This document shows, in pieces, positions 3,001-9,000 of a stretch of DNA of 42,375 nucleotides; within the stretch, counting starts at the first letter, position 1; every line of letters starts with the position of its first letter. A program made the position numbers. The stretch lies in IMG/VR virus record IMGVR_UViG_2802429217_000003; one strand, 5' to 3'. The DNA comes from a virus. Its lineage: Duplodnaviria > Heunggongvirae > Uroviricota > Caudoviricetes.

Positions 3001-6000
3001 AAAAACGAAAGTTGGCTGCACACCAAACTGTGCTTCATAACCGTCACTGTAGAAGGCATCCTGAACGTGATAGCGGTGGTCGTAATAAGCCGTTTTGAAT
3101 CGTTGAATATCCGCTGTGGTTTTCACGTCCATGATCCAGTGAAATTCAGGAATAATTTTGTCCGGACGGCACCGACACAAAATTCCTGTTTCCGGATCTT
3201 CCCAGTAAATTGATGATTCAGCGTGTCCTGCGCTTTCAACAAGCCATTGCCCCAGCGGCAAAGCCATAACGCTTTGATACATGAGTTCAATTTTCCGGCC
3301 TTCTTCCGCAGTGATAACCGTTTTTCCTGTGCTTGCGCATTCCATCAGAAACGCTTTCTCTTCTTCTTTTCCGGCGTTTGTACGGCGGTTAAATTCAGGT
3401 GCTACGATAAAGCGGTTACTGAATTCTTCCGGTTCAAGTACCCGGCAGTGGAAAGCGGTTCCTAAATCGAGCGTTTTTGTCTTTGTAGTGTCCACGGGGG
3501 CATTTTTACGCCACAAATACAGTGCCGGAGTATCAGCAATGTCATCGAGCTGAGACTTACTGACACCGGGACCCGCGTGGTAATTCTCATTCGAAATTCC
3601 GTAATAAATACCTGGCTCTATGTCTTCTACGATTACGGGATCTGCGACTTCACCAGTTTCATCACTGCAATCGCGATGCGGATCGCTGCCAGCATTCTCA
3701 TTGTGCGGATGTTCAGCGCCTTCCATTTCCTCCGGATCTTTTTCCTTAGCTTCAACCTGATTCTCTTCACCGAATGTTTCCTGGTATGTTGCGTCGCCCA
3801 TCACCGCACCACAGTCAGGGCAGTTATCCCCGCCAGTCTGACCGCAGGCATTGCAGACTATTTCCGGTTCCTGTTGCACTACTGGCTCAGGTTGTTTCGC
3901 ATCCGGGCTGATTTTTTCCGTTTCTGGCTGGTTCTGGTACACAGAATCGCGAGTCTGGATCCCCTTAACCCATTTCGGATCGTTCGGGTCGCTAATTCCG
4001 TCAACAAATTCACCACGTGATGCAGCAAGCAATTTATCGGCATCGACAGGATTTTTTGATGGAATGTTTTTCCGGGCTTCATGGAGTTCTGCCCGCAGTT
4101 CCTGATATTTCGCATCAACAGAATTTACCTGTGACTGAGCATCCAGCGGCTGCGTGTTCTGATGATGTTCAGTTGCATTCGGTTCCACTGTTTCAGCCGT
4201 TGCCTGTTCATCTGCCATTGCGCCAGATGGTTGTGGTTTTTCTTCATCGTCCTGTTTTCCTTCTTCTGTTACTCGCTGCGGCATCGGGGCCGAGGAGCGA
4301 CCGCAGGCAATATCCACGATTTCCGGATCAGGGTTGGCATGATCGGTTTCAGTCAGTACTTTGTTCAGATATTCAGTGACGTGTGCGGGGATGACCTCGA
4401 TCCCAATTGGTGCTTCTTTCACGGATGCAACCACGATGGCGCGGGAATAATCCAGCCCGCCAGGCATGGTGATGAATTTGTCGCGGAAAACAGAAAAGGG
4501 TGGTTTATTTTCAGCGATAATTTCCTCAATGCGTTTAGCGTGTGCCGGATGAAGGTTATAGATGTCCACGTCCATTGAACGGGCCAGTACGCCAGTGGCT
4601 ACATCGCGCGCCAGTGACGTCAGATCGTGGACGAAACCTTCGCCGCGATCGGTGAGGTTCCCGCCGCCAGCATTAGCACCGGAAGCCGTGCGAGTGATGC
4701 GTGAAACACGATTCCCTTTTCGCCATTCTTTTGTCAGAAGACCGCGATCAATGTGTTCGGTATCCAGCCAGGCTGAAATGAAATTCTTAAATTCATAGGG
4801 CTGATGTTTTTTCGTGATAGAGAACACTGCCTTAATTGCATCAGTCAGGCGGAGCAGGGCGGCATTATCCAGAGTTGTCGGTTCTGCCATGCTGCGTATG
4901 GCCAACAGCAGATTCTGGACATAGCTGTTTTCCTGATCCATCTCAAGAGCAGTAATGTGTTTGCGTTGTTCACGGGTGGCATGGTGCAGGTATTTTCGAT
5001 CCCCGGCTGCATACGTAAAAATGTGCAGAAGACGCTGCGTAAACCGCAAAGTGGCTACAGAGACTTCGCAATCCGGGCAATCCCCGTGAGCGCCTGCCAG
5101 TGTGTTTTCTTCCTGCCCTCCCGTCAGTTCTTCGGTTTCCTGGGCATTCTCCTGATGGTGAGCGTCGTCTGGTGCTGCTCCCGGTTTTAGTTCCCATGTC
5201 ATGGAGTCTTTGCTGAGTTGATAGCGTTCACTCCAGGTAAAATCGATCTCACCTTCAGGGGGCAGGTCATTAACGACAGGAAAATTAGTGGCAACAGCTT
5301 TAAAATAGCTGCTCAGTTTTTTACCTGATTTGACGATCAGGTAGTCCAGAGTGGCGCAGGTCGATTCAAAATCGTCGCTTGCCCACAGGACGACGTCAGG
5401 TTCACCGGATGATTTTTTCGCTTTCCGTAACAGGAAGAGTGGTTTTGCGCTCATTGTTTTTTAACCTCAACTCAGATTAAAATTCGTTTTGTTCAGTGAA
5501 TGATCTTGCCGGATACACACTGTTCATAGCCTGCGCCATACGCAGGCTATTTCTTTCAGATTTCACCTTTTAATTTCATTGCAATCAGCGTTGCCAGAAA
5601 TGCGGCTTTTTTTTCTGCGGGCAGATTCTTACCAATGTGCACCAGACTCATTTTTTTGACACCTTCGTTAAGTGTTTTAACGTTGCCTGATGGACCATCG
5701 ATATCAACCACAGTGAATGGGGTTTCTTTATTTTGTGTTTTAATCACGTGGCCAATGCGTTTTCCTTCCAGATAAACCTCGTGAACAATGTTATCAGTAG
5801 TAACAACAGTGGATTCATAATTGGCAATCATGTTTTTCTCCTTAATTAAGGTTGAGCGAATCCCTGCCATTGTTGGCATAAATTCAGTTTCGAGTAGTCA
5901 GTTAATTAAAGTTCGTGTGCCATCTGGTGTTTTTCGGCGCAACTTTCACTACAATATTTTTTCATTTCCGTCGTTGGGATAACTCCACGCATGAAATGAA

Positions 6001-9000
6001 GTGGTATTTTAATACTTTTGCTTTCTTGAATTTCTTTATTGCAAAGGTGGTAAGCACATTTGATTTTCTTAGCCATCACCATGATTCCGCTTTTACAGGT
6101 AAACCATCACGACCGAGGAAGACTTTAATCATGCAGTCAGAAATGCATGTTTTTGTAGTCAGGCTACGAATATAAAGTTTTCGCTTTTTAATATTGTTTG
6201 CCGAGGCGATATATGTCCGACCTTCATGAAGAACATAATCGCCAGGGGTTACACACTGACGTGGTATTTCATCAGTTCCGAAGTGATGTGCAATCATAAT
6301 CATCTCCATTTTTTCAAATGAACTTTGTTGATGCGGTGCCTGGTGCCTCCAGGTGATGTTAACCAGTTAACAATTAACACCGGATACAAATACCCCCCCA
6401 AACTAATATAGAGTTTTTTAACTGTTCCGCGTGCGCTTAGCCGCATTCACCGCATCACAAAATTCACTTTAAAAAGGGCGGACATCAGTCGAACTTCAAG
6501 AAAAAACCGATGCCGCCAAAGACTACACACAGCAATGTCGTTATTCACAACCGGAGGCGCACTCCCACCATTTATATTTAACAGACAAGACCGACTCTTT
6601 ATGGATACCGGAAATGCGCCTTCGTGTTGTGCCCGGTTTTATTTCACCACCTCCGGGCTTCGGTGGTCTCGGCTATACCCCTACAGCGAGAGCTTGTGTT
6701 AACATTTCAATACCCTTACAGTCGAGAGTTATTGAAATGTTGGATGTATTTACTCCATTGTTGAAACTTTTTGCTAACGAGCCACTCGAAAGACTTATGT
6801 ACACGATTATCATTTTTGGCCTCACTCTCTGGCTGATACCGAAAGAGTTTGCTGTCGTATTTAATGCTTATACTGAAATACCCTGGCTCTTTCAGATTAT
6901 AGGTTTTGCCTTTTCTTTCGTGGTTGCCATTTCCTTCTCAAGATTGCGAGCACATATTCAAAAACATTATTCATTGCTACCAGAGCAACGAGTATTGCTT
7001 CGTTTATCTGAGAAAGAAATCGCTGTATTTAAAGATTTCCTTAAAACAGGAAATCTTATTATCACTTCTCCTTGCCGTAACCCGGTTATGAAAAAATTAG
7101 AACGGAAGGGCATCATTCAACATCAGAGTGATGGCGCAAACTGTTCTTATTATCTCGTCACCGAAAAATACTCCCACTTTATGAAGTTATTCTGGAACAG
7201 TAGGAGCAGACGTTTTAATCGTTAGCTTACTGTGTACTTCTCCAACCAGCGACGCGCGCCAACTTCGGTTTTAAACGTTTTGCTTTTGGTATACGTCATG
7301 GCGGTGAACGTTCCATCCTGGTTGGGGAACACGCCACACACCAGGGATTCGTTGTTGCTAAGATCGATAGTATCCATGTTGACCTCATTTTCCCTTAACG
7401 CTGGGGGAATTGGCTTCATAGTTGCTCCGTATCGTGGAGCCTACGACCTGCTTTTAACCACATCAGGTGAGGTGATATCCTTACAAATGGTAATTTGCTG
7501 TAAGGATATTAATTATGGATATTAAATTTCGCTGTCCTCATTGCCGATCTCGCTACATTGAGATCGATGAGCACTCTGGCTCTGACAATGATCGTTTTAT
7601 CTGCGGTGATTGTTTTGCGGAAATCAAAGATTCTGATTTCAGTGAACACTTTAATAAAACAATCAATAAAATCATCCGGACAGTTAAAAACCGCAGGAAC
7701 AAGTAGTTTGTATAACTTCTCAATCTGATGTCTCAGGGGGCTGGTATCTATTTTTAACACCAGTCCCTGCTTTTCATCTGCGATCATCTTCGTATCCCCT
7801 TAACGCCGGGTGGCGGAACTGTTTGCTGAGAACACCGTGCGGTGTTTTGGTGTGGTTAATTTAGAATAACCTAACAAGACAGGCAAGCACTTTTTGTTAG
7901 ATCAACCTAACAAAAAGTGTGTTGGGATATAACAGACTGAAAAGAAAGCTATTTTATAGATTTGTTTTTACGAGCTTTGAGCATTTCTTCGAAAAGTCTA
8001 TTGAAATTCTCAACTCTAGCGCGCATTTCAGACAGCAATGCTTCCTGCTCGGAGGATGGTAGAGCATCGAATAATTCAATCAATTCTTTGTGGCTGGGAG
8101 TTAGCTCGTTTTCCACATGAAGCTCTTGTGCTGGCAATGGTGTTTTGTCTTCGTCACCAAACATTAGCCACGTAGGTGAGCACTTCAGAGCATCCGCTAA
8201 AGCAAACAGTCGCTTCCCTACAGGTTGGGTTTCATCTCTTTCCCATTGAGAAATGGTGACGTGAGCAACCCCAGCGAGACGTGCGACTTCTCGTTGTGTC
8301 AGGCGTAATTCTTTTCGTCTTGCCAGAGCTCGCTGGCCTAGTGTTTTTGTATCCATAGTTAGGTAATTCTAATTTTTCTTGACTTAGGTATCCCGCGCAC
8401 ATTAGTGTTAGGAATATCTAACAAAGGGGGCTTTGATGTTTAAAGTTGATGCAATTATTTTTTTTGGTAGCAAGACAAAGCTTGCCAGTGCCGCAGGAGT
8501 AAGGCTGGCAAGTATTGCTGCATGGGGGGAGCTGGTCCCAGAAGGTCGCGCGATGCGTCTGCAAGAGGCATCTGGCGGAGAGCTTCAGTACGATCCCAAG
8601 GTTTATGACGAATATCGTAAGGCAAAGCGGGCGGGTAAGGGTATTCATGAAAATCAGGCATGAGCACATTGAATCAGTGTTGTTAGCTCTGGCTGCCGAA
8701 AAAGGTCAGGCGTGGGTTGCCAACGCAATTACTGAAGAATATTTGCGCCAGGGGGAGAGTGAATTAGCCTTGGCGCCAGGCAAGGACTGGAACAATCAGC
8801 AAAACATCTATCACCGCTGGTTAAAAGGTGAAACAAAGGCGCAAAGGGAAAAAATCCAGAAGCTGATTCCTGCAATCCTGGCAATTCTTCCGCGCGAACT
8901 GCGACACCGCCTCAGCGTTTTTGACACCCTGGAACGTCGCGCATTACTGGCGGCTCAGGAAGCGCTGAATACGGCAATTGATGCGCATGATGATGCAGTT

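Follow-up and report, generated by a model that had tools for sequence, protein, structure and literature searches.

The DNA analysed here, which we call the window, is the 42,375-nucleotide (nt) virus record IMGVR_UViG_2802429217_000003 (Caudoviricetes), a Rac-like lambdoid prophage in which the cell-division inhibitor gene kilR is followed on the same strand, with an overlap of one base, by ydaE, the gene of a small predicted zinc-finger protein. We propose that translation of the two genes is coupled and that the β-rich domain of KilR, with the flexible C-terminal tail that is needed for its toxicity, and the C4-type zinc finger of YdaE probably belong to one functional module. The ground for the module is that other enterobacterial prophages encode both domains, at the equivalent place in the genome, as a single polypeptide of 124-127 aa (amino acids). 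Taken whole, we put the probability of this explanation of the kilR-ydaE segment at about 60%. The overlap itself adds nothing new, as the pair and its overlap are annotated in Escherichia coli K-12 and hence already known; the link between the pair and a fused protein, of which we found no discussion in the literature searched, suggests a new lead by way of sequence comparison. Its value lies in a cheap and testable hypothesis on two points, namely what YdaE does beyond binding zinc, and whether KilR has a partner and what its C-terminal tail is for. A 2025 study of KilR left open both whether it has one and the reason why the tail matters.

Both genes lie in an early-left operon with the order leader, kilR, ydaE, racC, recE, recT, and both are intact open reading frames (ORFs) under purifying selection. 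On the minus strand, kilR (6076..6297) encodes a protein of 73 amino acids (aa) that begins MIAHH, and it ends at the TGA at 6078-6076. Its frame is open 5' of this start, with further in-frame ATGs at 6303 and 6309, and a Shine-Dalgarno (SD) sequence, UGGAGA, stands 5 nt before ATG 6297 (duplex -6.4 kcal/mol; SD strength is given throughout as duplex energy with the 16S 3' tail). The RefSeq annotation of a related prophage (L102) gives kilR the same coordinates. The product belongs to the FtsZ/MreB inhibitor family of Rac-type prophages, scoring 160.7 bits against NCBIfam PRK11354 (cut-off 92) with profile positions 1-73 covered and matching PHROG 294 (Kil) at 1.4e-37. It is full length, its 73 aa including the 12-residue C-terminal tail, and it is 94.5% identical to K-12 KilR; pairwise dN/dS (ratio of nonsynonymous to synonymous substitution rates) for kilR among related loci was ~0.1. 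K-12 KilR inhibits FtsZ ring formation and MreB (PMC12482147), and the high identity suggests that the KilR of the window would act in the same way.

Downstream, ydaE (5906..6076, minus strand) is described here in its 56-aa form, which uses the K-12-type start ATG at 6076-6074 (MAKKIKCAYHLCNKEIQESKSIKIPLHFMRGVIPTTEMKKYCSESCAEKHQMAHEL). A reading of the window made from the sequence alone (the sequence-only reading) had named both genes, and profile hidden Markov models (PRK11354 and NF041288) bore out these identities. That reading had also described YdaE as a Cys-rich, putatively metal-binding protein of 56 aa that the ORF track had missed for being shorter than 60 aa. The mechanical ORF is indeed 58 aa long, the description agrees with the sequence, the family profile and the conserved Cys quartet, and retranslation of the frame revealed neither a frameshift nor an internal stop. 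YdaE, with its motif CAYHLC…CSESC, matched NCBIfam NF041288 at 80.7 bits (cut-off 35) and PHROG 1520 at 2.9e-24, and an identical public protein (P0001) carries Pfam PF27493. Its predicted zinc ligands, on the minus strand, are the conserved cysteines C7 (6058-6056), C12 (6043-6041), C42 (5953-5951) and C46 (5941-5939), whose columns in our alignment A2 are, like those of the C-terminal QMAHE (Q51-E55), invariant or at least 90% conserved; residue 50, usually D, is H in the window allele. An AlphaFold2 model (mean predicted local distance difference test score, pLDDT, of 91) comprises β-hairpins and a C-terminal helix. The ydaE ORF was intact in all 93 related loci fetched, with pairwise dN/dS of ~0.2, and in a six-frame analysis dN/dS was 0.18 in the annotated frame and ~0.9-1.2 in four of the five others. 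The remaining one, antisense frame -1, gave 0.36 yet has stops in 9 codons, so that only the annotated ydaE frame shows clear purifying selection. YdaE is predicted from these data and the model to be a small zinc finger under purifying selection. An antisense ORF of 86 aa (5915..6175, plus strand), open in relatives too, was rejected as non-coding, since its frame (-0) gave a dN/dS of 1.03, which indicates that this ORF is a by-product of the Lys/Glu-rich sense frame.

The evidence for a module comes from single-chain homologues. When 1.84 billion representative proteins were searched with a profile, only 37 relatives of YdaE came back, among them proteins of 124-129 aa with a KilR-like N-terminal half and a YdaE-like C-terminal half. 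By BLASTP, one of these (P0050) matched the KilR of the window at 43% identity (E 7e-20) and its YdaE at 41% identity (E 7e-12). Five such fused clusters were found (P0050, P0070, P0071, P0072 and P0073), 56-72% identical to the query P0050 and with up to 207 member sequences, and all five carry Pfam PF27398 (KilR) and PF27493 (YdaE) in one chain; P0072, a 124-aa protein of Atlantibacter hermannii, matches both PHROG Kil and PHROG 1520. The Cys quartet and QMAHE columns of YdaE are conserved in the fused proteins as well (alignment A3), their linker is the counterpart of the C-terminal tail of KilR, and the chain is roughly collinear with the split pair. Fused and split forms share the order of the two domains and the slot between repressor and recE, the fused genes standing in the series cI-like repressor, fusion, recE, recT. 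The fused proteins differ in being encoded by one ORF, in their first zinc knuckle (CxxC, compared with Cx4C in the YdaE of the window) and in having only 41-43% identity to the window proteins.

Other lineages, too, show both the split and the fused state, separated by little evolutionary distance. In phage HK225, where the two proteins are separate, Kil shares 81% identity with its counterpart half in the fused P0073, and the YdaE-like protein 62% with the other half. In Gifsy-2 (L099, 1383..1650), a 38-aa upstream ORF of another kind (phrog_22279) overlaps a YdaE-like gene by 8 nt, and the two ORFs together match fused 88-100-aa proteins (phrog_6751) of Salmonella, E. coli and Citrobacter. 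It is the natural fusions and the repeated switches between split and fused states at the same prophage position that lead us to suggest that KilR and YdaE act together. Among 55 clusters of close KilR homologues, we found no fused form of ~129 aa, all members being ~73 aa long, which argues that the split is maintained in the Rac type. The Gifsy-2 peptide represents a second class of YdaE partner, an N-terminal peptide of 38-45 residues ending in QKGDP (phrog_22279; P0036, P0037, P0051, P0159 and P0166), which occurs either as a separate ORF (Gifsy-1/2, at least 1000 contigs) or fused to a YdaE-like domain (phrog_6751). Examined by hmmsearch with a KilR profile as a possible reduced KilR, the N-terminal portion of these 88-100-aa fusions yielded an LNxKGDP-like motif only, which was not significant and is the sole likeness between this peptide and the tail of KilR.

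In the window, kilR and ydaE meet in the nonamer ATGGTGATG (6074..6082, minus strand), which holds three in-frame start candidates for ydaE around the kilR stop, the message reading GCGGAA-TCA-TGG-TGA-TGG-CT. Starting at ATG 6082 would give a 7-nt overlap and 58 aa, GTG 6079 a 4-nt GTGA overlap, and ATG 6076 a 1-nt overlap and 56 aa. The sequence-only reading had the ydaE ATG sharing one base with the kilR stop, and ATG 6076-6074 does share exactly A6076; the motif it gave, ATGA (4 nt), was mistaken, as the sequence reads TGATG (1 nt). RefSeq annotates a 56-aa ydaE in K-12 BW25113, with a start equivalent to ATG 6076 and the same 1-nt overlap with kilR. In strain E21845 (99.8% identity across 1.2 kb of this region), PGAP/RefSeq gives a 58-aa ydaE from ATG 6082 with a 7-nt overlap. 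The K-12 nonamer is identical to that of the window, and which codon is the real start (56, 57 or 58 aa) is ambiguous, a small annotation issue that extends over thousands of genomes.

To judge the overlap against a baseline, we used the PGAP annotation of prophage L102, to which the window is a mosaic relative and not an exact copy. Of the 56 adjacent pairs on one strand there, 17 overlap, with 1 nt shared in three pairs and 4 nt in another three; the overlap alone is thus no more than chance, and it is the conservation of the overlap that is non-random. Among 89 Rac-type junctions, 74 read TGATG and have the 1-nt overlap, ten read TAATG, in which the stop codon is altered and the overlap kept, and five read TGAAG, in which the K-12-type ATG is lost and the upstream ATG and GTG are kept. 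The 1-nt overlap is thereby retained in 84/89. A diverged allele in phage phiSTEC1589 has the junction ATGGTGATA, in which the K-12-type ATG is lost as well, and these variants imply that the K-12-type start cannot be the sole functional one. The geometry varies in more distant relatives: a Citrobacter kil/ydaE pair (L088, 48% identical) has a 4-nt ATGA overlap, L086 an 8-nt gap (TGAGG) and the HK225 pair a 33-nt gap, and others are fused.

Several properties of this junction would be expected of a translationally coupled pair. The genes are co-directional and join through TGATG (6078-6074), the overlap is conserved among Rac-type relatives, and our scans returned no minus-strand promoter-like site in 5400-7000, the junction included, and no minus-strand terminator-like site inside the kilR-ydaE pair. 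The SD-like sequence available to ydaE is weak: GCGGAA (6085..6090, minus strand), within the 3' end of kilR, precedes ATG 6076 by 8 nt, GTG 6079 by 5 nt and ATG 6082 by 2 nt, and its duplex energy is -3.5 kcal/mol. In E. coli reporter work, pairs overlapping by -1 or -4 were tightly coupled through termination-reinitiation, gaps of ~20 nt abolished coupling, and such overlaps were enriched among pairs encoding subunits of one complex (Huber et al. 2019, 2023; PMC6728339, PMC10666635). The co-directional TGATG (-1) arrangement of kilR-ydaE is among the two commonest geometries of those pairs, from which kilR-ydaE differs in having three adjacent in-frame starts that make the site of reinitiation uncertain. 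Upon derepression of RacR, kilR, ydaE and racC are co-induced 40-70 fold (PMC6765115, PMC11014345). Since 1- and 4-nt overlaps couple translation in E. coli, the SD of ydaE is weak and 84/89 junctions are conserved, coupling, which the sequence-only reading had taken the overlap to imply, is plausible; it would be consistent with general rules and not novel. Ribosomes terminating at the kilR stop would reinitiate at one of the codons of AUG-GUG-AUG, probably the main route of ydaE translation, which would tie the output of YdaE to that of KilR, and the weak internal SD would add some independent initiation.

A more specific version of the module can be formulated, in which KilR and YdaE would each be one half of a split protein: the zinc finger of YdaE might bind or position KilR, perhaps through the essential C-terminal tail, and so tune its action on FtsZ and MreB, with the overlap setting a fixed ratio of the two. 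We put this forward tentatively and consider it somewhat short of an even chance. Since overexpressed KilR is toxic by itself, YdaE would be at most a modulator, which might assist, target or temper KilR. The partnership is not obligatory. Complete E. coli genomes contain 2133 kilR places and 1982 ydaE places, ~150 fewer, and ~93% of the kilR places have ydaE. If the split-protein idea were true, published work on KilR alone would have dealt with one half of the effector as it occurs in nature, and a first function could be assigned to YdaE; as the Kil proteins of prophages influence filamentation, stress survival and antibiotic tolerance in E. coli, a modulator of KilR would be relevant.

Several observations weigh against a coupled KilR-YdaE module, and some of them would also be expected if the overlap reflected genome compaction, with ydaE initiated from its own SD and YdaE being a separate zinc-binding accessory whose function is unrelated to that of KilR. 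Overlaps are common in such phage genomes, ~30% of same-strand neighbours overlapping in L102. An SD is present before ydaE, and in K-12 it is strong (GGCGGAG, -7.1 kcal/mol, 9 nt before the annotated ATG), so that independent initiation of ydaE is possible there. In HK225, the 33-nt spacer with its own SD points clearly to independent initiation and shows that coupling is not conserved across the family. A kil gene occurs without ydaE in L103, and ydaE stands behind a ydfD-like gene, kil being replaced, in L076 and L087. KilR suffices for toxicity without YdaE, and this toxicity depends on the 12-residue C-terminal tail of KilR and on the length of that tail (PMC12482147). The middle region of YdaE recombines independently of kilR, and KilR is 94-100% conserved while YdaE alleles are only 66% identical, which gives no sign of allele-specific co-evolution. 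Further points bear on the module and its coupling as such. In the literature searched, we found neither direct evidence of coupling or of a KilR-YdaE interaction nor ribosome-profiling or reporter data for kilR-ydaE, and one published ribosome-profiling supplement that we searched had no entry for either gene. An RNA structure occluding the start of ydaE was considered and rejected, as the 140-nt junction folds no better than shuffled sequences (z = 0.28). The AlphaFold2 model of a fused protein, built on an alignment of six sequences, has two domains joined by a low-confidence disordered linker (predicted template modelling score, pTM, of 0.39) and predicts no packing between them; it is uninformative, neither supporting nor excluding contact between the domains.

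Compaction nevertheless leaves unexplained why several diverged lineages have KilR-YdaE single chains in the syntenic slot, with recurrent transitions between split and fused states, why ~93% of E. coli kilR places are accompanied by ydaE and why the overlap survives a change of stop codon; overlaps of -1 have, moreover, been shown experimentally to couple translation in E. coli (PMC10666635). We regard compaction as unlikely, though well worth keeping in view, and continue to prefer a coupled module.

YdaE could also be an antidote or attenuator of KilR, in a toxin-first pair resembling type II toxin-antitoxin (TA) systems in which coupling would supply a neutraliser with every KilR made. The genes are tightly linked and overlap, and the tail that is essential in KilR forms, in the fused proteins, the linker that leads to YdaE. 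The authors of the KilR study, who did not mention ydaE, called the TA status of KilR uncertain (PMC12482147), and ydaE has been scored as 'essential' by TraDIS (transposon-directed insertion-site sequencing) only (PMC5821084); TraDIS calls are unreliable for genes of 170 nt, however, and the Keio deletion of ydaE, JW1346, is viable (PMC7012810). The obligate co-occurrence expected of a type II system was not observed, given the kil gene without ydaE in L103, the replaced kil in L076 and L087 and the unequal numbers of places, and a PADLOC scan for defence systems returned no match. Chromosomal kilR, when derepressed, is reportedly toxic or active in Rho/NusG studies despite co-transcribed ydaE, which we count against an antidote, and a permanent fusion of toxin and antidote would be unusual. 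All in all, we consider an antidote role for YdaE improbable. Lastly, that some ribosomes shift -1 near the end of kilR (GUA-AAA-G, 6092-6086) and so make a KilR-YdaE fusion in E. coli too is most improbable: relative to kilR, ydaE lies in the -1 frame, which is already open 21 nt or more upstream of ATG 6082, A_AAA_G would permit a single-tRNA-Lys slip and the fused homologues are roughly collinear with the pair, but a canonical X_XXY_YYZ heptamer and a stimulatory downstream structure (z = 0.28) are absent, K-12 has A_AAG_G, and none of the 55 close KilR clusters is ~129 aa long, a result that would not detect frameshifting and shows that the split is maintained.

The family affiliation of YdaE needs some comment. 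The protein can be likened to small zinc fingers of the FCS, MYM, TRASH and eL24 types and of the Rtr1 type. Against the Pfam Rtr1/RPAP2 zinc finger PF04181 it scored 32.9 bits (cut-off 33), the zinc-finger core alone being matched, and the precomputed annotation of the identical protein P0001 includes PF04181.19. We regard the Rtr1 'phosphatase' names that YdaE bears in databases as over-annotation, the match being limited to the zinc finger. Misnaming is found for both proteins in public records, which call Kil proteins 'cell division protein FtsZ' and YdaE 'Rtr1/RPAP2 family protein phosphatase', and in one 90% cluster YdaE-like proteins stand together with unrelated sequences named 'DNA breaking-rejoining protein'. 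A prokaryotic metallothionein (PF02069) was rejected at 20.8 bits (cut-off 33; 15 residues matched); the four cysteines of YdaE leave room for a single metal site, unlike the multi-metal Cys cluster of metallothionein. The database label 'zinc-binding protein' for YdaE is attributed by PMC6892955 to Blindauer et al. 2002. A search by sequence for solved structures gave spurious matches to designed proteins only.

The nearest known counterpart of the locus is the Rac prophage of K-12, where kilR (b1352) and ydaE (b4526) have the same order, strand relation, junction nonamer and 1-nt overlap, and the flanks are shared too, with racC and recE downstream and sieB upstream. The window differs in its weaker ydaE SD (GCGGAA compared with GGCGGAG), in a YdaE that is 66% identical to that of K-12 and has a diverged central hairpin (residues 13-40), and in being a larger mosaic prophage with type II heat-labile enterotoxin (LT-II) and pertussis-like toxin genes. 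The divergence within ydaE is itself mosaic (5940..6040, minus strand, compared with L001), codons 1-12 and 41-56 being near K-12 and the hairpin strongly diverged; next to a kilR of 94.5% identity, this divergent centre implies a recombination boundary inside ydaE. The next gene of the operon, a racC homologue (5556..5831, minus strand; 91 aa), follows ydaE after a gap of 74 nt with a strong SD of its own (AAGGAGA, 5-nt spacer, -9.2 kcal/mol); its product matched NCBIfam PRK09790 at 186.5 bits (cut-off 171), and the gene is annotated in L102.

Upstream of kilR lies a conserved leader (6324..6531, minus strand) in which a DicF-like hairpin or small RNA (6476..6531) precedes an STnc100-like stretch (6324..6464). 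In an Rfam scan, both scored below their gathering scores, the DicF-like element at 44.9 bits (gathering score 48) and the STnc100-like one at 43.1 bits (gathering score 47); the same leader elements are present in K-12 Rac, where the DicF-like one scored 39.1 bits. The DicF-like element lies ~180 nt upstream of kilR, and its terminator-like stem is conserved while its 5' part is unlike DicF. A division-inhibitor gene preceded by such an element parallels dicB in Qin: the Qin-type dicF-dicB-ydfD module occupies an equivalent early-operon position and has a DicF-like hairpin and a homologous leader before its division inhibitor, and ydaE follows a ydfD-like gene in some prophages. It differs in that DicB is unrelated to KilR; we know of no YdaE partner of DicB. 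The ydfD-like partner gene, of DUF1482 type and encoding a small hydrophobic protein, overlaps ydaE in L076 (422..658) and is separated from it by an 11-nt gap in L087 (2744..2983). The leader stretch 6317..6490 (minus strand) occurs in 4461 of 5426 complete E. coli genomes, compared with 1960 that have kilR, is usually unannotated and precedes dicB in other prophages. From its sequence distribution, the leader looks like a conserved element placed before interchangeable division inhibitors. On the opposite strand, the sieB ORF (6614..7225, plus) stays open over 203 aa when read from ATG 6614; in RefSeq relatives it is annotated as 162 aa, starting at 6737. The longer version would start near the DicF-like element.

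Elsewhere in the window, all on the plus strand, we found toxin genes and antitoxin RNAs. A type II heat-labile enterotoxin A chain (23908..24687; Pfam Enterotoxin_a, 382.7 bits) and an LT-IIB subunit (24650..25042; 148.4 bits) are encoded after the lysis genes. A pertussis-toxin S1-like ADP-ribosyltransferase gene (21049..21774; Pfam Pertussis_S1, 56.2 bits) is followed by a 147-aa ORF with a signal peptide (21856..22299), which has no Pfam match and is a possible B subunit; at the equivalent place, L102 has an annotated subtilase-family AB5 toxin (EplA). Two type I antitoxin RNAs scored above their Rfam gathering scores, namely RalA (1552..1730; 190.3 bits), which lies opposite the ralR region, and sok (18334..18509; 105.2 bits), which adjoins a hok-like gene.

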